Shown here one piece after another: positions 9,161 to 58,502 of a DNA stretch of 64,000 nucleotides. Source of the stretch: Candidatus Woesearchaeota archaeon (GTDB lineage Archaea; Nanobdellota; Nanobdellia; Woesearchaeales; SM23-78); contig JAFGDD010000008.1 of NCBI GenBank assembly GCA_016932315.1, forward strand, positions 8,588 to 72,587. The letters are read 5' to 3'. The notes beneath the pieces are model-generated. The model ran no database searches, was not told the DNA's origin, and saw nothing but the letters and a program-made list of their open reading frames with translations. Position numbers and translations under genes: made by a program. Positions within the stretch are counted from its first letter, which is position 1; the number at the start of each line of letters is the position of its first letter.

Positions 9161-9278
9161 GATAAACACCAATAATATAGAGGGTTTTTTAAAGGTTACT
9201 AAAAGGAACAACAAAGATGAAATCTTTGCATGTTGTCATAAAGAAACATTAATAAACAGCTTTCTATTAAGCTCCTGG

Positions 9279-47881: not shown

Positions 47882-48050
47882 TGCTTAATTCCTTAATTCT
47901 TAAGTCTATCTTGTTAACAGTAAGAAAAAAGGACATAAGTTATTTATAAGGTTTGTGGAAAGAAGACAAAAAGGTTACAAAGATAGAAAGTTTTCTTGAA
48001 ATAAATAAGTTCTTCCGGATTTTTATAATAGCATTATTTAAACCAGTTGC

Positions 48051-48386
48051 TTGAATGATAAGCCCTGTTTCACAATGAACGGGCTTGAAAAGATTAAAAA
48101 ATTCCTTGAAGAAATTAAGGACGAAGACGTCATATTCAAATTGCATTTTTATGAAAGGACAGCTGACAGGCCGATATCAGAAGAACTGGTAAGAAGAAGC
48201 ATTAAAAACACAACTAACTTACTCAAAGCAGAAGAGCAGCCTGCGAGAAGGTTTGAAGAGAACAAGTACAAGCTGTGGATAAAGCTAAGCAACAAATACT
48301 GCCTGGTTTTGGTAATCGTAATAAAGGGAAAAACTTTATATATCATAACAGGCTGGAATAGTGATACAAAATGGCTAAAAAAATAA
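48051..48386 (+). CDS. DUF4258-like small protein (putative toxin of a DUF4258/DUF2283 pair)
   Basis: FKLHFYERTADRPISEELVRRSIKN...YCLVLVIVIKGKTLYIITGW resembles DUF4258. Overlaps the DUF2283-like gene by 16 nt. Confidence 0.4.
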   Translation: MNDKPCFTMNGLEKIKKFLEEIKDEDVIFKLHFYERTADRPISEELVRRSIKNTTNLLKAEEQPARRFEENKYKLWIKLSNKYCLVLVIVIKGKTLYIITGWNSDTKWLKK

Positions 48387-48715
48387 TATATGACAGCGAG
48401 GAAGACATATTATCCCTGACAAAAGGGGTAAAGGTGAAGTCATCCATGGACATAGGGGACTTTGTGATAGACATAGACCATGAAGGATTCATTTCCGGAA
48501 TAGAAATACTCAACGCTTCCCAGAATCTCGGCATTGAGGAAGAACAGCTGAAAACAATAGAAGAAGCGAGCATGAACATAACCTACAAGCCAGGGCATGT
48601 ATTGATATCGCTCTTATTAAAATCAAAAAGAAAAGAAAAAGAAATAGCCATACCATTAACAGTTGATTTAGGGCGCACTGCAAAAACAGAAAAGACCAGA
48701 TTTGCGATAGCCTAG
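48371..48715 (+). CDS. DUF2283-like small protein (putative antitoxin partner)
   Basis: KIIYDSEEDILSL...IDIDHEGFISGIEILNAS closely follows the DUF2283 consensus (YD.E.D.LYI...D.D..G.IVGIEIL.AS). Confidence 0.5.
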   Translation: MAKKIIYDSEEDILSLTKGVKVKSSMDIGDFVIDIDHEGFISGIEILNASQNLGIEEEQLKTIEEASMNITYKPGHVLISLLLKSKRKEKEIAIPLTVDLGRTAKTEKTRFAIA

Positions 48716-48866
48716 CAATTAATCTTGCGAACAGCCATAGAAGCTTTTATGAATTTCTCTATCTCATTAATCAATTCAGGGTCCTCGCTTAATTCAGTCT
48801 TCTTAGCCATGATGTTATGGGAGGAAGAGCGATTATATAAATTTTATTAAGAAGAGAAAGGAAGGA

Positions 48867-49289
48867 TTACGGATAAAATTCTTTCAGGTTCTCCTTTATT
48901 ATGCTGTTCTTCATTTCAAGAGTTTTCCTGATTATGATTTTTCCTTGCTTTAACCCTATTTTTGTGCCGTAGTAATTGATGTTGTTCCTGATGAACCTTA
49001 ATCTGTCAAACAAATCATATTTTGCTCTTCCAAGAGCATCCTTTAGCAGGAGCCCAAGGCAGACGTGCGAGGTCACTTTGTAGCCTTTTGATATGCACAA
49101 TGCTTCCAAAGCTTCCCTTAAAGAGTCATAGGCTAGTGAAGCATAGACTGATATGTTTTCAGTGTCAAGGACTATTTTCCTTATTGCTTTTTCTTTTAGA
49201 TCGGACATCTCTATCAAGGATTTGATTAGATTAGAATCTATTCTTGTCTTCTTGATTAATCCTTTTTCAAAGCACTCATCGATGTCCAT
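48867..49289 (-). CDS. HEPN-like domain protein (partner of the upstream nucleotidyltransferase)
   Basis: All-alpha protein with RLRFIRNNINYYG, which is Rx4-6H-like with Tyr in place of His. 35-nt overlap with the MNT gene. Confidence 0.4.
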   Translation of the reverse strand: MDIDECFEKGLIKKTRIDSNLIKSLIEMSDLKEKAIRKIVLDTENISVYASLAYDSLREALEALCISKGYKVTSHVCLGLLLKDALGRAKYDLFDRLRFIRNNINYYGTKIGLKQGKIIIRKTLEMKNSIIKENLKEFYP

Positions 49290-49801
49290 TCCACGCTTCC
49301 CTGCAGGGTAATCCCGTTCAAGAGGTTGTTTATTAAATGCGTGTTGCTAAAATCGGAGATTTTCCGGGCGGTTAGCAAATGGATATTGTGCTTTAATTTT
49401 GATTCGTATTGCTTTAATTCCTTTGGAACACTGGTTTTCTCGCTGATGATTGCGATGTCCAAGTCACTGGTTTCTGTGTCGTAGCCTGATGAGAAAGAGC
49501 CGAATAAGATGATGATGGGCTTCAGGTAATAATTGTTCAGGAAGCTGATTAAGCCTGATTCTTTTATTGATTTTATATTATAATAAACCTTTAAGTCCCT
49601 GTATTCTTCTGATTCAATGTTTGCCTTGAAAAGTAAAAGATTCTTGAAATTTCTTTGCTTTAACAAGGATTTAGCAAAAGACTTTAACTTCTTGCTGGCA
49701 CTTGCAGGCGAGATATTTATTATTCTTGCTATTTCCCTTACATTGAATTCTTTCGTTGGGTTAATTAGGAAAGGCTTTAAAATGTTTAATTCATTAAACA
49801 T
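49256..49801 (-). CDS. wHTH + minimal nucleotidyltransferase (MNT) protein
   Basis: ILFGSFSSGYDTETSDLDIAIISE is the GS-x(n)-DxD Pol-beta-type NTase motif. N-terminal wHTH (FNVREIARIINISPASASKKL). Confidence 0.65.
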   Translation of the reverse strand: MFNELNILKPFLINPTKEFNVREIARIINISPASASKKLKSFAKSLLKQRNFKNLLLFKANIESEEYRDLKVYYNIKSIKESGLISFLNNYYLKPIIILFGSFSSGYDTETSDLDIAIISEKTSVPKELKQYESKLKHNIHLLTARKISDFSNTHLINNLLNGITLQGSVEWTSMSALKKD

Positions 49802-49823
49802 ATGTTTAAAATAATGAACGAGA

Positions 49824-49840
49824 ATATATAAATGTTACGG
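49824..49840 (-). promoter_or_regulatory. Putative archaeal BRE-TATA promoter (minus-strand ccgtaacatttatatat) ~25-30 nt upstream of the MNT gene start
   Basis: A 17-mer identical except at one position recurs at 51238-51254, upstream of the paralogous MNT gene. Confidence 0.4.
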
Positions 49841-49857
49841 TAATCTGAATAAACAAT

Positions 49858-50049
49858 CTACAAACCCAGCAGCTTGAACACCAGGAAAGCAGGCCAGAAC
49901 AAAGCCTTGATTATTCCTAGCAACGCGTTCCAAAAAGACGTTGATGCTGAAATGTAATAAACAGCAGCGCCAATAAAGCCCATACCGTAAACAGCACTAC
50001 CAGAATGGCAATGAACACTCCCATAATTACTCTTCTTCTTAGGCATCAA
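49858..50049 (-). CDS. Small hypothetical membrane protein (63 aa)
   Basis: Gly/Ala-rich hydrophobic helices (GMGFIGAAVYYISAS, LLGIIKALFWPAFLVF). Could be spurious. Confidence 0.2.
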   Translation of the reverse strand: MMPKKKSNYGSVHCHSGSAVYGMGFIGAAVYYISASTSFWNALLGIIKALFWPAFLVFKLLGL

Positions 50050-50157
50050 AAATCACCTCCTGATTTTTGGGCCTTCAAAAAACAATGTTTTTTGATAGGC
50101 ATACGAATCACCTCAGAGAGGATACTGGGGATAAGAGTATAAAAAGGTTGCGGGACT

Positions 50158-50676
50158 TTATGCTTCCAGCATCATGCTAATCTTAGCTATGAACTTTGTT
50201 GCGTTATTGAATATCTCTTCCAGTCTTCGCTGAGTGTAAGTCTTTATGGCTGAGTACCTTGCTATGCGGCTTTCTTTTTTTGCATCCTCAAAGTACTTCA
50301 CGTATTCATCCTCAAATATTTTGTAAGCTTGGTTTAATAGTTCTAAATCCTGTTTTTCCATTTCATCCGGCACTAGAAGGTAACCCAGTGCTATTTGCGC
50401 TGCATCATGGTCCCTTGCTTCATAGCCTTTGCTCAGGATGGCTGCTTTGGCTGAATAAAGCATTGAGTAATATGATACTGTGATTGCCCAGTAATCCCAG
50501 AAGAGCTTTTTAGGCTCTTTCAGCCTGATATCTTTCAAATGCTTTGCTATTAATAAGCTGTTCTTGGCTTTTTCCATGAACAATTTTATCTTGAAGAACT
50601 GGCTTGATTTCTTGATTCTGCTGTCTTTTAAGAATTCTTTGAATGATTCCTTGTACTCTTCCATGCAATCTCCCAA
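50158..50676 (-). CDS. HEPN-like all-alpha protein (partner of the upstream nucleotidyltransferase)
   Basis: 172-aa helical protein overlapping the MNT gene by 49 nt. Same arrangement as the 48867/49256 pair. Confidence 0.35.
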   Translation of the reverse strand: MGDCMEEYKESFKEFLKDSRIKKSSQFFKIKLFMEKAKNSLLIAKHLKDIRLKEPKKLFWDYWAITVSYYSMLYSAKAAILSKGYEARDHDAAQIALGYLLVPDEMEKQDLELLNQAYKIFEDEYVKYFEDAKKESRIARYSAIKTYTQRRLEEIFNNATKFIAKISMMLEA

Positions 50677-51212
50677 AAGGAAGAGGGGTTATTTAAAATG
50701 ATATGATTAATTTTCGCTTGTTTTCCGACGTTTTCGTCAGGCTTTCGGAGCATTGCCTTGAACTCAGACTCCTTTATGAAAATTGCATTGACTTTCTTTT
50801 TGTGCAATAATTCGAAAGAAGAAGATGAGAAAGACTTATTTCCTTTCTTGTTAATAACTAATAAATCAATATCGCTCTTGTCAGAAAATGAATTGTCAGC
50901 ATAGCTGCCGAACAATAAGATGATGTCATTTGATAATTCCTTTGAGAGCAAGGAGATTAATTTATTATGCTTAAGATAATCATTCTTTTCCTCAAAAGAA
51001 GAAACTGCAAGGTAAGACGAGATGATTGGATTGCCAGCTAATGAGATGATCTTAGCCTTGCCGACAGGCTTGATTATTAATAAATCCTTCATCCTGCTGA
51101 CAGTTCGGTAAAAAGTTGCATAAGGAATCTTAAGGATAGAACTAAGATTATGCATGGTAAAAGATTGATCGTTCTTACCCAGATAATTAATGATTCTTAA
51201 AATATTATCCAT
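50628..51212 (-). CDS. wHTH + minimal nucleotidyltransferase (MNT) protein, paralog
   Basis: LLFGSYADNSFSDKSDIDLLVI NTase motif. N-terminal wHTH (FTMHNLSSILKIPYATFYRTVSRM). Confidence 0.65.
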   Translation of the reverse strand: MDNILRIINYLGKNDQSFTMHNLSSILKIPYATFYRTVSRMKDLLIIKPVGKAKIISLAGNPIISSYLAVSSFEEKNDYLKHNKLISLLSKELSNDIILLFGSYADNSFSDKSDIDLLVINKKGNKSFSSSSFELLHKKKVNAIFIKESEFKAMLRKPDENVGKQAKINHIILNNPSSFWEIAWKSTRNHSKNS

Positions 51213-51237
51213 AAACGAATAATATTAACCAGAAATG

Positions 51238-51254
51238 ATATATAAAGGTTACGG
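51238..51254 (-). promoter_or_regulatory. Putative BRE-TATA promoter (minus-strand ccgtaacctttatatat)
   Basis: Same 17-mer, with one mismatch, as the one upstream of the paralogous MNT gene at 49824-49840. Confidence 0.4.
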
Positions 51255-51529
51255 AAAGAGGGATGCATGGGGCGAAAAGAACTCATTGCGCTTTTTCTGC
51301 AAAATCTACGCTTTTTTATAATAGCATTTTATTAAGAACTTAATAAAAAATAATTTCATGGTCAATGAATTTACCACTGAAAAAAGCGCGGCACACTTAT
51401 ATTTTAAAAACAAAATAGATTTGTCTTTGTATCAACAACTCTTACAAAAAATTGCGGAAAGAAGGCATAAGAATGAAATTCTAAAAAAGAAAAATAGAAG
51501 AAGTATGTCATCGACAAAGTGGAACTGAG

Positions 51530-53404
51530 CTAGGCTTCCATCCTACTTCTAAAAAATCTTTCAACATCTTTATCCATAAAGTATACGTAACAGCCTTTCA
51601 TTCCACGTGAAAGCAATACGCGATAGACGTTTTTTACATATTTGACAAATTCATCTTTAGATCGTTTAACTTGAGAATCTGCCGAGTTTTCGGGTCGACC
51701 AATCCATTCCTGTTTATCGAAATCATATCCTAAATCTTTACCAACTATCACACCAACATAATCAAATTCAAATCCTTGAATCGTATAAATGCTTCCTGCC
51801 TGATTAACGCCGTTTGGGTCGTAAGCCCAAAGTGCAGCACGAGGAACGCCAGAGGCTAAAAATCTCGCTTCATTCTTACCTTCCCAAGTAATCTTAAAAT
51901 CCCCAATTACAACATCTTCTTTAAGAGTTCCATCTGGGTTTGGATCGCTCCACGACCAGCAAAATCCGGCAACTAATCTTGCAGAATTAGGTTTTTCTTT
52001 ATTTTTACCCTTTATTGTTTCATAAAGTTCTTGTGGAGAGCTAAATATTTTGAATTCAAAAGATTCTTTCTCATTCCATAATATGTTAGCAGTCTTTTTT
52101 ATCCCTAAAGTATTATTAATCCAATTAACAAACGCATCTGAACCTTGACATCTAAATTGCGCTTCCAGCTCGTATTCAAATATATTGCATGCATGCAGTT
52201 GAGCATATTCTTTTATATATGCTGTTGACCCCATCTCATCAGGTCGAACGTTTTGATCATCATCTATAAAAAAAACGCATACTTTGGCGACCTTTAAAAG
52301 CTCCTCTATTTGTGTTCCCCTTGACCTTTGGAGTGCAGGTGTAAATCTGCTGTTGCTAGTTTTTCTTATTCTGTGAGATTCATCAGAAATTAAAACATCG
52401 ATTTCATTTGGTTGAGCCTCGCGATAGCTGTTAAAATATTTAAACTGAATCGAACCACGAACCCCAATTATTTTTCTTAAAGTCTCTGTAAAAGCCTTTG
52501 ATCCTGTAGCATAATGCGCGTTATAACTTTTGAGTAAAAGGTCAGCCATTAAATTTATTGCAATAACTGATTTTCCCGTACCAGGCCCCCCTTTTACGAT
52601 TATAACGGCTTTCTGCTTATCATGAAAACCTTTTTTTGCGCAACTAAGAACTTTGTCATAAACAATTAACTGTTCATCCAATAAGATGTACTCTGATTTT
52701 CCTTTAATAATGCTTCCCACATGATCCATTAATTTTTTACTGGGTCGAAACTTGCTATTCTCTATTTTTGAAAGGATTTCCAAACCTTGTCCTTTATCTA
52801 GTTTGTGAAGTAAAAAATCTTTTAACTTTTCCACGTCATCCGCCGTAAATAAAGGAAATTTTTCAATTAATTTCTGGAATTTCTCTGAAAATATTACGTC
52901 GCTTTCATCAAAATGATAATTGTGTAAATATGTGCATGAATCCAGTTTAATATTATCTCCTTCACTATTGAATGCAGTATGTGAATCTTCTAAATACATT
53001 TGATACTGCCCTACTTGAGCAGAAGGATGCAGAACTTCTCTTTTACCTCCTCCTACCCAGGTTAAAACTTCATTTTCTCCGCTAGCATCTTCACACTTAT
53101 CCCATTGCTTAAGTTCAATAATGATTGCGTGCTCATTACCAGCCTCATCTTTGCCTGAAATCATACAGTCAAGCCTTTTAGAAGTTAAAGGCAACTGATA
53201 TTCTAAAATTATCCCATGATCCATTAAATTAGCGTATTGAAAAACTTGTGATATGGCACGCAATGAATTTCTCCAAGAAGTTATTTCTGCTGGGGAAGGA
53301 TTGAATCTGAAGTAGTTAAAAAAAGCAATTTTTAATTTTTCACTGATTTGGTTTTGTACAGTATCCTGAATGAATTGTTGAGATGAACCAGAATAAAGTC
53401 TCAT
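51530..53404 (-). CDS. PD-(D/E)xK nuclease-like N-terminal domain fused to DUF2075/Schlafen-like SF1-type P-loop ATPase
   Basis: N-terminus RLDCMISG...AIIIELKQW has the D...ExK pattern. The central region has Walker A IIVKGGPGTGKS and Walker B VLISDESHRI. Conserved DUF2075-like blocks (VFFIDDDQNV, RCQGS) lie toward the C-terminus. 624 aa. Confidence 0.65.
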   Translation of the reverse strand: MRLYSGSSQQFIQDTVQNQISEKLKIAFFNYFRFNPSPAEITSWRNSLRAISQVFQYANLMDHGIILEYQLPLTSKRLDCMISGKDEAGNEHAIIIELKQWDKCEDASGENEVLTWVGGGKREVLHPSAQVGQYQMYLEDSHTAFNSEGDNIKLDSCTYLHNYHFDESDVIFSEKFQKLIEKFPLFTADDVEKLKDFLLHKLDKGQGLEILSKIENSKFRPSKKLMDHVGSIIKGKSEYILLDEQLIVYDKVLSCAKKGFHDKQKAVIIVKGGPGTGKSVIAINLMADLLLKSYNAHYATGSKAFTETLRKIIGVRGSIQFKYFNSYREAQPNEIDVLISDESHRIRKTSNSRFTPALQRSRGTQIEELLKVAKVCVFFIDDDQNVRPDEMGSTAYIKEYAQLHACNIFEYELEAQFRCQGSDAFVNWINNTLGIKKTANILWNEKESFEFKIFSSPQELYETIKGKNKEKPNSARLVAGFCWSWSDPNPDGTLKEDVVIGDFKITWEGKNEARFLASGVPRAALWAYDPNGVNQAGSIYTIQGFEFDYVGVIVGKDLGYDFDKQEWIGRPENSADSQVKRSKDEFVKYVKNVYRVLLSRGMKGCYVYFMDKDVERFFRSRMEA

Positions 53405-53406
53405 TT

Positions 53407-53772
53407 TTATAATTCCGTATATTTTTTATTTAATCCCTTTATTTTTTCAACAGGGTATCTCTTTTCGTTTTTATCCATTTTTTTATTTAGTGCTGTTGTC
53501 AAATCAATATCGTATTTTTGTGATAGTCTTAAAAGAAAATAAAGAACGTCAGCCATTTCTTCAGATATTTCGCTTCTTTTTTCAGAATTACTAAATAACT
53601 CTTCCATTTGCGTACTAGTTTTAAATCTAAAATGGTCAAGAAGTTCTCCAGCTTCAGTTATTACGCCAATTGCCAATTCTTTAGCATCATGATATTGATC
53701 CCAGTCCCTGACTTCACAGAATATTCTTATTTTATCTTTGAGTTCCTGAATATTTGTTTTGGAATCCATCAT
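53407..53772 (-). CDS. MazG-like all-alpha NTP pyrophosphohydrolase (121 aa)
   Basis: Two EExxE/D metal-binding helices (GVITEAGELLDHF and ISEEMADVLYFLLRL). Its stop is 2 nt from the start of the DUF2075 gene. Confidence 0.6.
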   Translation of the reverse strand: MMDSKTNIQELKDKIRIFCEVRDWDQYHDAKELAIGVITEAGELLDHFRFKTSTQMEELFSNSEKRSEISEEMADVLYFLLRLSQKYDIDLTTALNKKMDKNEKRYPVEKIKGLNKKYTEL

Positions 53773-54026
53773 GAATGAGTGCTTTAAAAGAATATAAAAA
53801 CTTTCCTCTTTTTTCGGAATTCTTCCGCTTCCCCCTCTTCTCGTTAGAATTCGTGTTTGGAAGCGCCCAGATTTAATTTTCTTCTCGTTTTCTGAATAAG
53901 AATATCAATAATTGCCATTATTTCATCTCTATAAGTGCTAGACCGGTGATTTCGTTTAACATATTGATAGAATTAGTTTATAAGCTTCACGCGAGGATGT
54001 CCAGTGTGCACGGAATTCTTTCGGAA

Positions 54027-54056
54027 AATAAGCACTAGCACTGGACATGTTGACGT
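54027..54056. repeat. 30-nt repeat aataagcactagcactggacatgttgacgt (copy 1), ~100 nt upstream of the RHH-PIN pair
   Basis: Exact second copy at 55321-55350. The cactggacat core is mirrored by atgtccagtg at 53997-54006. Confidence 0.7.
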
Positions 54057-54156
54057 AGGATATTTAAATCGATATTCTTATCTTCCTCTCGGCATGTTAC
54101 CGAAACATTTAAATATTTGCACTGATTACACAGTTTTAGATGCAGAGGTAAATTTC

Positions 54157-54396
54157 ATGCCAACAATAACCTTGTCAGTGCCAGAGGATTTGAAAAAGGA
54201 AATGGACGAGTTAGAGTTCATCAACTGGTCTGCTGTTGCGAGAGAGGCTATCAAGGAAAAAGTATCTGAGCTCAGCTTGTTCAAGTCAATTGTTTCCAAG
54301 AGCAAGCTTAAAGAAAAAGACGCCTCAAAAATAGCAGACAGGATATCAGCTTCTATGCACAAGAAGTACAAGGAAAAGTTTCCTGGGCTGAAATAA
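54157..54396 (+). CDS. Ribbon-helix-helix (CopG/VapB-like) antitoxin
   Basis: MPTITLSVPEDLKKEMDE..NWSAVAREAIKEKV is a typical RHH N-terminus. Stop is adjacent to the PIN gene start. Confidence 0.5.
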   Translation: MPTITLSVPEDLKKEMDELEFINWSAVAREAIKEKVSELSLFKSIVSKSKLKEKDASKIADRISASMHKKYKEKFPGLK

Positions 54397-54831
54397 ATGA
54401 GAATAGTAGTGGATGCTAATGTACTCTGCGCAGCATTGCTTGCCAAGGGCAAGACTGCAGAACTCTTGTTCTCAGATCAGATAGAGCCCATTGCTCCTGA
54501 ATTATTGTTCACAGAACTTGAAAGGAACAGGGAAGAGCTTCTTGAAAAAACTAAGTTATCTGAAAATGATTTTAACATTCTCATAGCACTTTTCAGGAAA
54601 AGAATAAGAATAATCCCTGCAATAGAGTTCGCAGATAAGCTGATAGAAGCCAACCAGCTCTTAAAAAATCATAAAAAAGATACTGAGTTCGTCGCATTAG
54701 CTCTAAAACTTCATTGCCCATTATGGTCTAAGGAAAAAAGGCTCAAAAAGATTAATGGAATCCTTGTTCTGGATGCAAATGATATTACCGGAAGATTCTT
54801 TCCCGCTTCAAGCAAGGATGGTACAATCTAA
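54397..54831 (+). CDS. PIN-domain ribonuclease (VapC-like toxin)
   Basis: MRIVVDANVLCAALL opens with the first conserved Asp, and other acidic residues (E..ELE, LVLDAND) follow. 144 aa. Confidence 0.6.
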   Translation: MRIVVDANVLCAALLAKGKTAELLFSDQIEPIAPELLFTELERNREELLEKTKLSENDFNILIALFRKRIRIIPAIEFADKLIEANQLLKNHKKDTEFVALALKLHCPLWSKEKRLKKINGILVLDANDITGRFFPASSKDGTI

Positions 54832-55229
54832 CCAACTCTTTTCTCGAACTCCTTCCGGGAAATATGCTTGCTTTTAATTATATTATCAAGCTTTTTCTTG
54901 TAATCAGGTCTCAGCTTCTTGGCTAGTTCAGGGTTCCAGATGTATGCTATGCTGCCTTTCTTGTCCAGGGCTACCTTGTTTATGCTTTCAAGGTAATCCA
55001 ATGCCACAAGGTAAGTTTGCCACATCACTTTTTTCGGCAGGTTCTTCCATAGCTTTGTCCGGTCGTATTCCCCGCTGTGCTTCTCTATTGCTTTCTCTAT
55101 CATGAGCACTGTGCTAAGAGTCGGAGACCTTTCATAAGGGCTTTTTCGCATAAACAAGGTATATATCAATTGATATATAAAGCTTTCGTTCCTGAACTGA
55201 ACCATGAAAATACTCTTTGAACTGCTCAT
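54828..55229 (-). CDS. Hypothetical protein
   Basis: 133-aa ORF. Its start codon lies inside the 29-nt repeat at 55226-55254. Confidence 0.3.
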   Translation of the reverse strand: MSSSKSIFMVQFRNESFIYQLIYTLFMRKSPYERSPTLSTVLMIEKAIEKHSGEYDRTKLWKNLPKKVMWQTYLVALDYLESINKVALDKKGSIAYIWNPELAKKLRPDYKKKLDNIIKSKHISRKEFEKRVG

Positions 55230-55254
55230 TTATATAATGCTACTAAGAATTTTC
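55226..55254. repeat. 29-nt repeat tcatttatataatgctactaagaa(t)tttc (copy 1)
   Basis: Second copy at 57043-57071 with one mismatch. Contains a TATA-like ttatataa. Confidence 0.7.
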
Positions 55255-55320
55255 GTGAATCCGATGTCATAATCGTAATCCTTTCAATATGCCCAGTATT
55301 TCTTTCAATTTATCGTCAAT

Positions 55321-55350
55321 AATAAGCACTAGCACTGGACATGTTGACGT
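55321..55350. repeat. 30-nt repeat aataagcactagcactggacatgttgacgt (copy 2), ~110 nt upstream of mazE
   Basis: Identical to 54027-54056. Confidence 0.7.
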
Positions 55351-55459
55351 CAGGCATATAAACATTCCCTGTTAAGCATCTTCAATCAAAACATTTATAT
55401 ACCTTTCCTTACTTTTCTTACAAGTAAGAAAGGTGATATTCATGGGGTTGTTAATCGGT

Positions 55460-55714
55460 ATGAGAACAGCAACAATAACAGACAAGGGGCAGATAGCCAT
55501 TCCAAAAGACATGAGAGAGATTAATGGCTTTGAAGAAGGCGACAAAGTGGCGATAATAACCTATAATGACCATATAGAGCTCAGGCCGTTAGATCAAGTC
55601 AGAAAAAAGCTTGACTTCACAAAGGAAGGAATCCAAACCGCAGTTTTAAGCGAAAAATCTTTAGCAAAGATTTGGCTTACAAAAGAAGAGGATGAAGCAT
55701 GGAAAAACCTTTGA
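55460..55714 (+). CDS. mazE: MazE/AbrB-type antitoxin
   Basis: MRTATITDKGQIAIPKDMREINGFEEGDKVAI is a SpoVT/AbrB swapped-hairpin motif. Overlaps mazF by 16 nt. Confidence 0.55.
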   Translation: MRTATITDKGQIAIPKDMREINGFEEGDKVAIITYNDHIELRPLDQVRKKLDFTKEGIQTAVLSEKSLAKIWLTKEEDEAWKNL

Positions 55715-56031
55715 AGGGCGAAGTGATTGTAATTCATTTCCCGTTTACTAATATGAGCGCATCCAAAAGAAGACCTGCTTTGGTGCTTGCTGATATACGA
55801 GGCGATGATGTAATCACTTGCCCAATCTCAAGCCAATCGAGAGGAGCGGATTACGCGATCTCTTTGGAAGATTCTGATTTTTCAAAAGGAAAATTGCCGC
55901 TTGCGAGCTTCATAAGGCCTAATGTGTTATTCACAGCCGATAAATCGCTGATTGAAAAGAAGGTAGGCGTATTAAAAAATAAGAAGACTGATGAAGTCAT
56001 TGAAGAAATCTGCAGGATGCTTAGGAAATAG
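55699..56031 (+). CDS. mazF: MazF/PemK-family endoribonuclease toxin
   Basis: GEVIVIHFPFTNMSASKRRPALVL and the downstream CPISSQ match MazF/PemK blocks. 110 aa. Confidence 0.7.
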   Translation: MEKPLKGEVIVIHFPFTNMSASKRRPALVLADIRGDDVITCPISSQSRGADYAISLEDSDFSKGKLPLASFIRPNVLFTADKSLIEKKVGVLKNKKTDEVIEEICRMLRK

Positions 56032-56176
56032 TTAAGAAATTCAGCTTAACCAGGCGATATACGTAATTCTTTCGTTCTCCACTGGACAACAAAAGCTGCT
56101 GCTTTTGAGCCCATTGGCTTCGCCACTGGACAACCGCTCGTAAGGTTTATAAGCTTGTATTCTCTTCTATAATATC

Positions 56177-57025
56177 ATGACAGAAAACGTTAATCATGAC
56201 AAAGCACTGGTTGTTTTCCAGGACAAAAAAATCAGAAGAGTTTGGCATAACAACGAATGGTTTTTCTCTGTTGTGGACGTTGTTCAGGCTTTGACAGAGA
56301 GTGCTGATGCTAAAGATTATTGGTACAGGCTCAAACAAAGAGAGGCAGAATCAAGCGGAATCGAGTTATCGACATTTTGTCGACAACTGAAATTACTAGC
56401 TTCTGATGGCAAACGTTATGAAACAGACTGCGCTAACACAAAGAGCATCTTCAGGATTATTCAGTCAATCCCATCACCCAAGGCTGAGCCTTTCAAATTA
56501 TGGCTTGCCAAAGTAGGCTATGAGCGTGTGCAGGAAATACAAGACCCTGAATTAGCTCAGAAGCGTATGAAAGAGCTTTACCGGGCAAAAGGATACTCTG
56601 ATGAATGGATTGAGAAGAGAGTCAGGGGTATCGCTATAAGGCAGGAGCTGACTGATGAGTGGAAGAACAGAGGCGTTGATGAGAATGTTGAGTTCGCGAT
56701 ATTAACCAATGATATTAGCAAGGCTACTTTTGGCAAGACTGTTGAGGAGTTCAAGCAATTCAAAGGTTTAAACAAGCAGAACTTAAGGGATCATATGAAT
56801 GATTTAGAATTAATATTTACTATGCTTGGTGAGAAAGTTACTTCAGAAATTACTCAAGCAAAAGACTCGCAAGGATTCAGGCAATGCCAGGATTCAGCAA
56901 AAAGAGGAGGAAGGGTTGCTGGAAAAGCTAGGAAAGAAGCTGAGAAAGAGATAGGCAAACCCATAACCGCGAAAGAAAACTTTCTTTCTGAGCCTGAAAA
57001 AGCCAAGAGAAAGAAGCTAAGGTGA
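56177..57025 (+). CDS. Bro-N domain protein (DinD / antirepressor-like)
   Basis: N-terminal IRRVWHNNEWFFSVVDVVQAL is Bro-N-like. The remainder resembles DinD-type proteins and has a basic C-terminal tail. Confidence 0.45.
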   Translation: MTENVNHDKALVVFQDKKIRRVWHNNEWFFSVVDVVQALTESADAKDYWYRLKQREAESSGIELSTFCRQLKLLASDGKRYETDCANTKSIFRIIQSIPSPKAEPFKLWLAKVGYERVQEIQDPELAQKRMKELYRAKGYSDEWIEKRVRGIAIRQELTDEWKNRGVDENVEFAILTNDISKATFGKTVEEFKQFKGLNKQNLRDHMNDLELIFTMLGEKVTSEITQAKDSQGFRQCQDSAKRGGRVAGKARKEAEKEIGKPITAKENFLSEPEKAKRKKLR

Positions 57026-57042
57026 AAACTTTATTATATTAA

Positions 57043-57071
57043 TCATTTATATAATGCTACTAAGAACTTTC
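57043..57071. repeat. 29-nt repeat tcatttatataatgctactaagaa(c)tttc (copy 2)
   Basis: Matches 55226-55254 with one mismatch. Confidence 0.7.
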
Positions 57072-57095
57072 ATAGCCTTTCCGGGAAATTAAGAA

Positions 57096-57815: not shown

Positions 57816-58502
57816 CTAAAACCCTCTCTCTTCCCTCTTAGCCTTTCTTCTCAAGTCCTCAAGCCACTTGTAAACTGTGGAGTGCATGCTGCCCTTAATC
57901 AACAGCTCAACAGCTCTTTTAGCATTAGAAACAGGGCCTGCTTCGCCAATAATGCCTATAGTCTTGCCATAAACGCAAATCTGGCTGCCAGTTAATTCCT
58001 CGATCACCCTGCGAGCCTTGCCACCAGTTCCTATCACCCTTGCTCTTACTCTTCTGAGTTTGTTAGGATTATCCAAGCCATAATCCTTAAGATTGATAAT
58101 CTCGAGCATGTAATCAGGCTTCATTAAGAGCTGGGCAGTCTCAGGGCTGAAACCCCTGCTGATAGCCTGGATTACTTCCTTAAGCTCAAAAAGCTTGATA
58201 GCATCCTTGCCAAAAATAATAACGTCGCCCTCTGTGGAGTCAACATGAATCTTGGCATGAGCCCATTCCTCCAAATCCTTCTTGTCCTTGCCCTTAACGC
58301 CGATAAGCACAGCAATCCTGTCCTTAGGAATCTTGATAGTATAAGAATATTCACTGCTGTTACTGATAACAACGCTTTCCTTGCTTATCCTGGGCTTGAC
58401 AGAAGAGCTCATGTCATCATCTTCTAATCCGTCATGAGACTCAAAACTATCCTGCTCAGCCAATTCTCCCTCCTGCTTCTTCCTAGCCTTCTTAACAGCC
58501 AT
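57816..58502 (-). CDS. KH-domain RNA-binding protein, archaeal Dim2/Pno1-like, with acidic N-terminal extension
   Basis: Two KH-like GxxG regions (IGVKGKDKK and IGTGGKARRVIEELTG). Acidic ~60-aa N-terminus. Confidence 0.6.
   Translation of the reverse strand: MAVKKARKKQEGELAEQDSFESHDGLEDDDMSSSVKPRISKESVVISNSSEYSYTIKIPKDRIAVLIGVKGKDKKDLEEWAHAKIHVDSTEGDVIIFGKDAIKLFELKEVIQAISRGFSPETAQLLMKPDYMLEIINLKDYGLDNPNKLRRVRARVIGTGGKARRVIEELTGSQICVYGKTIGIIGEAGPVSNAKRAVELLIKGSMHSTVYKWLEDLRRKAKREERGF

Follow-up and report, generated by a model that had tools for sequence, protein, structure and literature searches.

Two Class II HEPN/MNT gene pairs with family-specific operator-like palindromes in an accessory island next to topoVI-B of a Woesearchaeota archaeon

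Class II HEPN/MNT gene pairs, in which a PF05168 HEPN protein is combined with a PF01909 minimal nucleotidyltransferase (MNT), go back to a prediction by Makarova and Koonin and were named by Yao et al. in 2020; they carry a GSX10DXD motif and a conserved Tyr, lack RX4HXY, are commoner in archaea than elsewhere, and had no reported biochemistry as of 2020 (PMC7641770). Here we describe two gene pairs, MNT1/HEPN1 (module 1) and MNT2/HEPN2 (module 2), which lie close together on one strand of a 64-kb stretch of DNA from a Candidatus Woesearchaeota archaeon (contig JAFGDD010000008.1). The whole of this stretch was analysed and is called the window throughout. An earlier note on the same DNA, made from the sequence alone, had drawn attention to both pairs, to the short promoter-like motif ahead of each, and to a neighbourhood rich in toxin–antitoxin (TA) and defence genes.

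Several described systems offer themselves for comparison. MNTs are reported to have no DNA-binding domain (PMC7641770). In the HEPN-T/PF05168 class of HEPN proteins the His of the motif is replaced and a conserved His is found elsewhere, and inactive HEPNs have been described as substrate-binding domains of MNTs (Anantharaman et al., PMC3710099). PDC-M05, a defence candidate of the PADLOC collection defined by adjacent M05A and M05B genes, is enriched in archaea and unvalidated (PMC12988326). Further points of reference are the type VII HepT/MntA systems and classical type II antitoxins such as MazE, ribbon-helix-helix (RHH) and helix-turn-helix proteins.

We find that both pairs are of the Class II HEPN/MNT type and are not HepT/MntA systems. 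The explanation that best accounts for the locus as a whole, and that we regard as likely, is one of HEPN/MNT cassettes equipped with their own promoter and operators, joined by a separate DUF4258/DUF2283 cassette. In kind, the cassettes add nothing new, being members of catalogued families; the conserved palindromes that cover the promoter and the start of each MNT gene are the main subject of what follows.

Two gene pairs of the Class II type

The earlier note had placed in each pair an MNT gene with a GSx(n)DxD motif, followed by an overlapping gene, and its coordinates hold for both pairs (Table 1). The overlap is 34 nt in module 1 and 37 nt in module 2. The GSX10DXD motif is exact in MNT1 (GS-FSSGYDTETS-DLD, G101-S102...D113-L-D115) as well as in MNT2 (GS-YADNSFSDKS-DID, G102-S103...D114-I-D116), and its residues are invariant in the alignments of both MNT families (A3, A4). 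Both proteins lie above the Pfam cut-offs for Polbeta and NTP_transf_2, at 34.2 and 28.3 bits respectively in the case of MNT1, and both give sub-threshold matches to the NCBIfam model of the MntA antitoxin.

The proposed fusion of a winged helix-turn-helix (wHTH) domain to the nucleotidyltransferase was confirmed by profile search for MNT1 and by structure modelling for MNT2. When the MNT1 family profile is compared with the PDB, residues 4-72 match the wHTH of BlaI and CadC, and residues 78-140 match MntA (5yep_A). The AlphaFold model of MNT2 (pLDDT 90.8) consists of an H-H-H-strand-strand wHTH, followed first by a long helix and next by the transferase fold, and a Foldseek search with it returned Sso10a-2, ArsR/MarR wHTH proteins and the MntA antitoxins 7bxo_A and 8xeo. 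Both MNTs are also recognised by the PADLOC model PDC-M05A, MNT1 with E=4.1e-15 over residues 6-142, a range that includes the wHTH region, and MNT2 with E=1.1e-8.

The second genes of the two pairs had been assigned to HEPN as well, and this assignment was upheld along different routes. HEPN2 passes the Pfam model HEPN (PF05168) at 25.1 bits, the cut-off being 22, and by sequence gives weak matches in the PDB to AF0298 (2hsb) and 9xbd. A HEPN protein of 170-174 aa follows the MNT2 homolog in 6/8 distinct contexts examined, and within the HEPN2 family H86 and Y137 are invariant and Rx4-6H is absent (alignment A5). HEPN1, described in the earlier note as an all-alpha HEPN-like protein, yielded no usable sequence match in Pfam, NCBIfam or the PDB, whether searched as a single sequence or as a family profile. 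It can be placed only because of structure prediction followed by fold search, and because of PADLOC: its AlphaFold model (pLDDT 91.6) has as best Foldseek match the HEPN protein AF0298, 2hsb (probability 1.0, TM 0.66/0.72), with HepT toxins next, and it matches PDC-M05B with E=1.6e-5. There are at least 300 homologs of HEPN1, 55-67% identical to it, several of them named 'UPF0332 family' by JGI, and at 86 of 87 HEPN1-homolog loci an MNT1 homolog lies directly upstream and overlaps. The family is marked by an RNxINYYG motif; S74-H75, R98, R101-N102 and N105-Y106-Y107-G108 are invariant (alignment A1), and R101-N-N-I-N-Y106-Y107 has no His at the position that Rx4-6H would require.

Both HEPNs, then, lack the Rx4-6H RNase motif while keeping an invariant His and an invariant Tyr, and neither matches DUF86 (PF01934) or NTase_sub_bind (PF08780) in Pfam at E<=1. 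The missing motif and the His kept outside it agree with the HEPN-T/PF05168 class (PMC3710099). The gene pairs agree with the Class II description in having the MNT gene first with an overlapping HEPN gene, an intact GSX10DXD, a conserved Tyr without RX4HXY, and an archaeal enrichment; HEPN2 passes PF05168, HEPN1 has the AF0298/UPF0332 fold, and both MNTs pass PF01909. They depart from it in three respects, namely that the MNTs carry an N-terminal wHTH of about 75 aa and so are not 'minimal', that HEPN1 has diverged beyond the reach of the Pfam model, and that the hosts are mesophilic DPANN archaea and not the usually cited hyperthermophiles. With respect to PDC-M05, pair 1 has adjacent matches to M05A and M05B, whereas HEPN2 has no match to M05B, so that pair 2 is only half-recognised, by M05A; members of PDC-M05 are in any case candidate defence systems only.

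The resemblance to type VII HepT/MntA extends to the folds, with structural matches to MntA (7bxo_A, 8xeo) and HepT (7ae6, 7bxo), to gene order, to GSX10DXD and to a conserved Tyr near the C-terminal helix. Membership nevertheless fails on a defining feature of that type, an Rx4-6H HEPN: the HEPNs described here lack Rx4-6H/RX4HXY and fall outside DUF86/PF08780, and the antitoxin has a DNA-binding domain, which MntA has not. Because both HEPNs lack Rx4-6H, the HepT/MntA mechanism cannot simply be assumed for them.

Table 1. Coordinates of the modules, their promoter and operator-like sites, and other features of the locus, as positions in the window
Feature	Position	Strand	Description
MNT1, 181 aa	49256..49801	-	N-terminal wHTH fused to minimal nucleotidyltransferase
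HEPN1, 140 aa	48867..49289	-	Class II (UPF0332-like) HEPN without Rx4-6H
BRE+TATA of module 1 (CCGTAACATTTATATAT)	49824..49840	-	ends 22 nt before MNT1 ATG
O1 of module 1 (CGTTCATTATTTTAAACA)	49803..49820	-	operator-like palindrome, TATA box to start codon
O2 of module 1 (TGTTTAATGAATTAAACA)	49783..49800	-	operator-like palindrome over MNT1 codons 1-6
MNT2, 194 aa	50628..51212	-	wHTH + long helix + nucleotidyltransferase
HEPN2, 168 aa from ATG	50158..50664 (alternative start 50676)	-	PF05168-type Class II HEPN
BRE+TATA of module 2 (CCGTAACCTTTATATAT)	51238..51254	-	ends 25 nt before MNT2 ATG
O1 of module 2 (GGTTAATATTATTC; family consensus GGATAATATTATCC)	51217..51230	-	operator-like palindrome
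O2 of module 2 (GGATAATATTTTAA)	51197..51210	-	operator-like site, MNT2 codons 1-5
DUF4258-like protein, 103 aa from ATG	48075..48386 (alternative TTG start 48051)	+	putative BECR-fold RNase-type toxin
DUF2283 protein, 114 aa	48371..48715	+	putative partner or antitoxin; PF10049
32-aa open reading frame (ORF) (MAKKTELSEDPELINEIEKFIKASMAVRKINC)	48712..48810	-	gene call on Logan contig L001
62/63-aa hydrophobic ORF, between modules 1 and 2	49858..50049	-	preceded by GGAGGTGA ribosome-binding site
Bro-N domain protein	56177-57025	+	PADLOC single-gene defence candidate PDC-S13, full length, E=3e-121
Accessory island	47882..57095		9.2 kb, between topoVI-B (ends 47881) and PHP2 (starts 57096)

A shared basal promoter and family-specific palindromes

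The archaeal TATA box usually lies about 25-27 nt before the transcription start site (TSS), with a purine-rich transcription factor B (TFB) recognition element (BRE) directly upstream. Ahead of each MNT gene stands a 17-mer, which the earlier note had located exactly and had reasonably read as BRE plus TATA box. The two copies are 16/17 identical, shuffles giving an expectation of 0.33 matches at <=3 mismatches; TTTAWATA is matched 8/8 at both sites, and the same layout recurs at many genes of the window. From the usual TATA-to-TSS distance, the mRNA of both MNT genes is predicted to be leaderless. The further idea that an 'identical BRE-TATA' is a signal of the modules did not survive comparison with the rest of the window, where GTAAC[AC]TTTAWA stands ahead of housekeeping genes too, at 9188 and 29332. 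This likeness, together with the fact that BREs of the CGTAAG/CGTAAC type are common in Woesearchaeota promoters, argues that the 17-mer is a consensus-like basal promoter, neither a module-specific regulatory site nor the trace of a duplication. A role as a specific operator shared by both modules was ruled out: the wHTH domains differ, the conserved family sites lie downstream of the 17-mer, and housekeeping genes share the BRE/TATA.

What is particular to each module begins below the TATA box. For the MNT1 family, DNA was compared across 60 unique loci whose proteins are 46-57% identical. Conservation begins abruptly at -41, the information content being close to zero upstream of -42, and runs through BRE and TATA box into the palindrome TGTTYA-N6-TAAACA at -19..-2 (O1) and then, across the start codon, into the same palindrome at +2..+19 (O2). 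In 1.65 Mb of sequence, 95 occurrences of the pattern TGTT[CT]A-N6-T[AG]AACA lie no further than 25 nt from the start of an MNT1 homolog and 4 lie elsewhere, and O2 of module 1 is the sole exact TGTTYA-N6-TAAACA in the window. The codons covered by O2 are constrained at the nucleotide level as well: codon 6 is AAC in 51/51 family members (30% elsewhere in the genes), codon 2 is TTC in 79% (25% elsewhere), and codon 5 is TTA in 89% (36% elsewhere).

The MNT2 family, compared over 8 loci with proteins 52-80% identical, repeats this design with different letters, the order being TTTATATATCA, the palindrome GGATAATATTATCC at about -17..-4, and GGATAAT again at +3..+9; in O2 of module 2, ATGGATAATA is conserved in 7/8 family loci. 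The spacing between O1 and O2 is 20 bp in both modules. The recognition helices of the two families likewise have one set of invariant residues each, ISPATASK versus IPYATFYR. A conserved palindrome over the promoter and a DNA-binding domain in the putative antitoxin are thus both present, and the palindromes are probably operators for the fused wHTH, placed on a leaderless transcript. Pattern enrichment, synonymous constraint and the presence of both sites in the window support a function at the level of DNA, and the conserved upstream sequence is evidence, of a comparative kind, that each module takes its promoter along when it moves. Palindromes over the core promoter and start, and a first gene whose product appears to be DNA-binding, recall the classical type II antitoxins; the differences are that the DNA-binding domain is fused here to an enzyme, that the promoter is of the archaeal BRE/TATA kind, and that binding is a prediction.

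Several observations weigh against reading each module as a cassette with its own promoter and pair of operators. The BRE/TATA of MNT1 in the window is atypical of its family, where the consensus is aAtAGAAAgaTaTTTAAACA and the family-type promoter TATTTAAAC: TTTATATA occurs in only 1/59 MNT1-family promoters, and none of the family promoters comes closer to the 17-mer than 4 mismatches. It resembles instead the MNT2 type, in which TTTATATAT is kept in 6/8 and TTTATATA in 7/8 loci, so that a local exchange of promoters is possible. Both facts would be explained if the neighbouring cassettes had undergone a short gene conversion or exchanged promoters, but we think this an unlikely source of the likeness, since the identity ends exactly at the edges of BRE and TATA and host-driven convergence is sufficient, given the occurrence of the same elements at housekeeping genes and the prevalence of such BREs in the lineage. 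As for the operators, O2 is reduced in most MNT2 homologs to a GGATAAT half-site, and the comparison for that family covers 8 loci only.

The O2 palindrome of module 1 also lies within the mRNA, where it could act as an RNA hairpin, though the predicted fold is weak. The start-codon sites might on this account work as RNA, a 5' hairpin affecting translation or stability of the leaderless mRNA, and not as wHTH operators; an 8-bp hairpin that includes the AUG can be drawn, and constraint at synonymous sites is compatible with RNA structure. Its folding energy (-5.9 kcal/mol, z=-1.4) is not significant against shuffles, and a hairpin at the MNT1 5' end was set aside as a candidate. O1, moreover, is placed downstream of the TATA box but upstream of the predicted TSS and so would not be transcribed, yet it is conserved like O2, and a second family has the same TATA-palindrome-ATG-repeat design with another sequence and another recognition helix. 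We therefore give the RNA account little credence and retain that of wHTH operators. The idea that the repeats might resemble integron attC sites was dropped, as no RYYYAAC/GTTRRRY structure was seen.

The two pairs had been described as tandem duplicated and paralogous, and in the sense of a local duplication this description is contradicted by the comparison. In pairwise BLAST, MNT1 and MNT2 are 36% identical over 44 aa, and HEPN1 and HEPN2 31% identical over 59 aa. Profile comparison with hhalign finds the MNT families homologous from end to end (152 columns, 19% identity, probability 97.5%), and the HEPN family profiles align over 26 columns only, with 50% probability, around a common KGYxxxSH motif. 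For the pair 2 family at least 521 homologs were found, and other DPANN genomes contain hundreds of relatives of each pair, at 50-80% identity. A recent tandem duplication, of which the shared 17-mer would be a remnant, could draw on the common architecture and strand, the adjacency, the 16/17 identity of the 17-mer and the full-length homology of the MNT profiles; it has against it that protein identity is only about 19-36% and over partial lengths, that far closer relatives of each pair stand in other genomes, and that the operators are entirely different, DNA similarity stopping at the 17-mer. The identity levels rule out a recent event, and we consider this origin extremely improbable. Unlike wHTH-MNT/HEPN modules also stand in tandem on the same strand of two other DPANN contigs, L173 (1188-4076) and L179 (1501-3573). 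The side-by-side build-up of unlike MNT/HEPN cassettes is thus recurrent, and these arrays favour co-insertion over duplication. Judged by sequence divergence, the pairs belong to two anciently diverged, separately mobile families that landed side by side.

A probable third cassette and the accessory island

Downstream of module 1 lies a pair of small genes overlapping by 16 nt, which the earlier note had labelled DUF4258-like and DUF2283-like. The second label stands outright, the protein matching PF10049 at 34.7 bits with a cut-off of 23. The first holds at the level of the family: the protein of the window scores 20.3-20.6 bits against PF14076, under the cut-off of 25, whereas 25/37 of its homologs match that model at E<=1e-3, the best at 2e-6, and an identical protein is named 'DUF4258 domain-containing' in NCBI. 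An overlapping DUF4258+DUF2283 pair is also found in another genomic context (L180/L181). We take it as likely that this is a third cassette, composed of a predicted DUF4258 toxin (BECR-fold, RNase-like) and a DUF2283 partner. The likeness to the DUF4258 (PF14076) family lies in the homologs that match its model, the small overlapping partner gene and the retention of the pair elsewhere. The difference lies in gene order and partner, the toxin gene standing first here and being accompanied by DUF2283, whereas the usual order is antitoxin-first (A/T), with an MqsA-type partner in fusions (PMC11980606).

Some small reading frames accompany the three cassettes. The 32-aa ORF is convergent with the DUF2283 gene and overlaps its stop codon; an TTTATATA of its own, at 48834-48841, precedes the ATG by 23 nt, and the ORF has no Pfam match. 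The 62/63-aa hydrophobic ORF has a BRE/TATA-like CCGCAACCTTTTTATAC at 50137-50153, about 90 nt upstream; it has no Pfam match, no homolog in the fetched loci, and in NCBIfam only a non-significant SecE match (E=0.1; 12.9 bits, the cut-off being 106). Similar promoter-like 23-mers (TTTTTATAATAGCATT...) occur at 48020-48042, upstream of the DUF4258 gene, and at 51313-51335, upstream of an unannotated 56-aa ORF (51358-51528, +), which has no Pfam match and may be a real small gene.

The three cassettes share a stretch of DNA between topoVI-B and PHP2. Across 80 related loci whose synteny was compared by tblastn, the KH gene (57816-58502) is directly upstream of topoVI-B in most, with PHP2 in between in several of the nearest relatives. 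At this KH/PHP2-topoVI-B junction the window contains an extra 9.2 kb (47,882-57,095). Island genes were found at the topoVI-B slot in none of the sampled relatives, and the insertions that other relatives have there, 0.7-5 kb long, are unrelated. The topoVI-B of the window is 62-87% identical to homologs from Woesearchaeota/Nanoarchaeia metagenome-assembled genomes, which makes the host a DPANN archaeon. GC content is 0.33-0.37 over 48-54 kb and about 0.41-0.43 in the flanks of the island. The Logan assembly contig L001 also bears the island, with identical gene calls and, in addition, the 32-aa ORF, and proteins identical to those of the window stand in NCBI under Candidatus Woesearchaeota, HEPN1 having the locus tag JW756_03290.

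According to Pfam and PADLOC, the remaining island genes encode a MazG-like protein with a DUF2075/Schlafen-type helicase (PADLOC matches PDC-S41/AbiO/Nhi-like), RHH-PIN, an unknown 133-aa gene product, MazEF and Bro-N. This agrees with the earlier note, which had sketched about 9 kb of accessory functions with RHH-PIN, MazEF and MazG/DUF2075 genes, bounded by a housekeeping flank that does end with the topoisomerase VI gene; the finding that the note had named as speaking against an accessory region, its conservation in all relatives, was not made, the island being absent from the slot in the 80 related loci. Synteny and GC content are the grounds for the accessory status, and with the PADLOC and Pfam labels of the neighbours they support an island that is strain-specific, accessory and dense in TA/defence genes. 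That it was horizontally acquired and holds three independent two-gene toxin-antitoxin-like cassettes is, in our judgement, probable. No tRNA was found in the window, no integrase among the island proteins scanned, and no RNA family in an Rfam scan of 47.5-57.5 kb; a search for flanking direct repeats yielded nothing convincing, a border match of 16/20 and an inverted pair of 17 nt being on a par with other chance pairs.

The slot itself is variable. Between KH/PHP2 and topoVI-B its size ranges from 60 nt to 5 kb across Woesearchaeota (L078 9071-9883; relatives L002-L081, upstream of the topoVI-B match). A reading by eye only suggests HD-domain proteins, hydrolases and helicases among the slot ORFs of relatives, and a tyrosine-recombinase-like ORF adjoining topoVI-B in one of them. 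In the related locus L022 a Bro-N homolog, 51% identical, lies just downstream of topoVI-A. The topoVI-B slot of Woesearchaeota may be an insertion hot spot.

A second promoter-associated element, CACTGGACA, marks the right half of the island, where four promoters have it. A BRE-like CGTAAG/CGTCAG and a TATA box follow some 12 nt downstream, and the element, often doubled, is found at 53976-54006(-), 54039-54068(+), 55333-55362(+) and 56080-56157(+); the window contains five exact copies, all intergenic within the island and ahead of MazG/DUF2075, RHH-PIN, MazEF and Bro-N. The same layout occurs in L012, L031, L032, L037, L038, L049, L074 and L173. In 1.7 Mb of Woesearchaeota loci a TATA box follows 9-17 nt downstream in 12/23 cases, against a mean of 0.05 for permuted 9-mers, and the genes after the element in other loci encode PIN, PD-(D/E)XK, LAGLIDADG, RNase H-like and HATPase_c proteins and two wHTH-MNTs. 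From its distribution, CACTGGACA looks like a lineage-wide upstream promoter element of accessory, selfish and defence genes. When viral contigs were scanned for CACTGGACA-N9-17-TATA, at least 120 single scattered matches came up, an uninformative result because the pattern is too degenerate for a database of that size.

Two repeats were noticed in the same half of the island. A 42-nt direct repeat, at 54027-54068 and 55321-55362 with its first 30 nt identical (AATAAGCACTAGCACTGGACATGTTGACGT), brackets a 1.3-kb segment comprising RHH-PIN and the 133-aa ORF, and may represent either a promoter region that was duplicated or a scar left when a cassette was inserted. The other repeat, of 29 nt with 28/29 identity (TCATTTATATAATGCTACTAAGAAYTTTC), contains TTTATATA; one copy lies at 55226-55254, at the start of the 133-aa ORF, and the second at 57043-57071, in the gap that separates Bro-N from PHP2, on the island's right edge.

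A working model of autoregulation

On the reading that we favour, of HEPN/MNT cassettes under their own operators, a leaderless mRNA would start from a BRE/TATA placed 22-25 nt before the ATG, and a dimer of the MNT, through its wHTH, would bind the palindromes and block recruitment of TFB and RNA polymerase, giving autorepression of the kind known from classical type II antitoxins. The nucleotidyltransferase would AMPylate a Tyr of its HEPN partner (Y106/Y107 in HEPN1, Y137 in HEPN2) and so render it inactive, by analogy with type VII HepT/MntA. Unmodified HEPN would be growth-inhibitory by way of a non-canonical active site around the conserved His (H75 in HEPN1, H86 in HEPN2). As a working model, an AMPylation-based mechanism like that of HepT/MntA appears the most likely by this analogy.

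It tells against the model that toxicity, AMPylation, DNA binding and the TSS are all matters that we infer, and that toxin activity is not assured in proteins without Rx4-6H, whose role could be that of a regulatory or substrate-binding subunit. This leads to an alternative in which the pairs are no TA systems but two-subunit nucleotidyltransferases, with a HEPN that binds the substrate or has a regulatory part, on the pattern of kanamycin nucleotidyltransferase, and a wHTH that merely controls expression. The absence of Rx4-6H from both HEPNs would suit such an enzyme, as would the description of inactive HEPNs as substrate-binding domains of MNTs (PMC3710099) and the circumstance that toxicity of the Class II type has never been shown (PMC7641770). 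On the other side stand the overlapping genes with the MNT first, their mobility, a setting in a defence island and the Tyr and His that never vary in the HEPNs, all of which fit a TA or defence module, and PADLOC arrived at the type through its association with defence. We consider the two-subunit enzyme rather unlikely, and hold the same view of its corollary, that the target modified would be another one, whether a small molecule, the end of a nucleic acid or some component of a virus.

Returning to the operator-controlled cassettes, we propose, tentatively and with clearly less confidence than we place in the cassettes themselves, that DPANN Class II modules in general may be autoregulated units, in which the MNT would be both a repressor, occluding the promoter from twin palindromes 20 bp apart where a leaderless mRNA begins, and the chemical silencer of a non-canonical, Rx4H-less HEPN; the Woesearchaeota-wide CACTGGACA might in addition hint at a regulator of an accessory 'defensome'.

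With this locus, a variable insertion slot beside topoisomerase VI in Woesearchaeota is now documented. CRISPR and restriction-modification systems are scarce in DPANN archaea, which seem to depend on compact modules of this sort. Of the TA/defence modules predicted in archaea, Class II HEPN/MNT pairs belong to the most abundant, with an antiviral role that is unconfirmed (PMC7641770, PMC12988326). For these, the present analysis supplies candidate operators, the recognition helices expected to bind them, and the Tyr and His residues to mutate, and its added value lies in a concrete, testable model of autoregulation.

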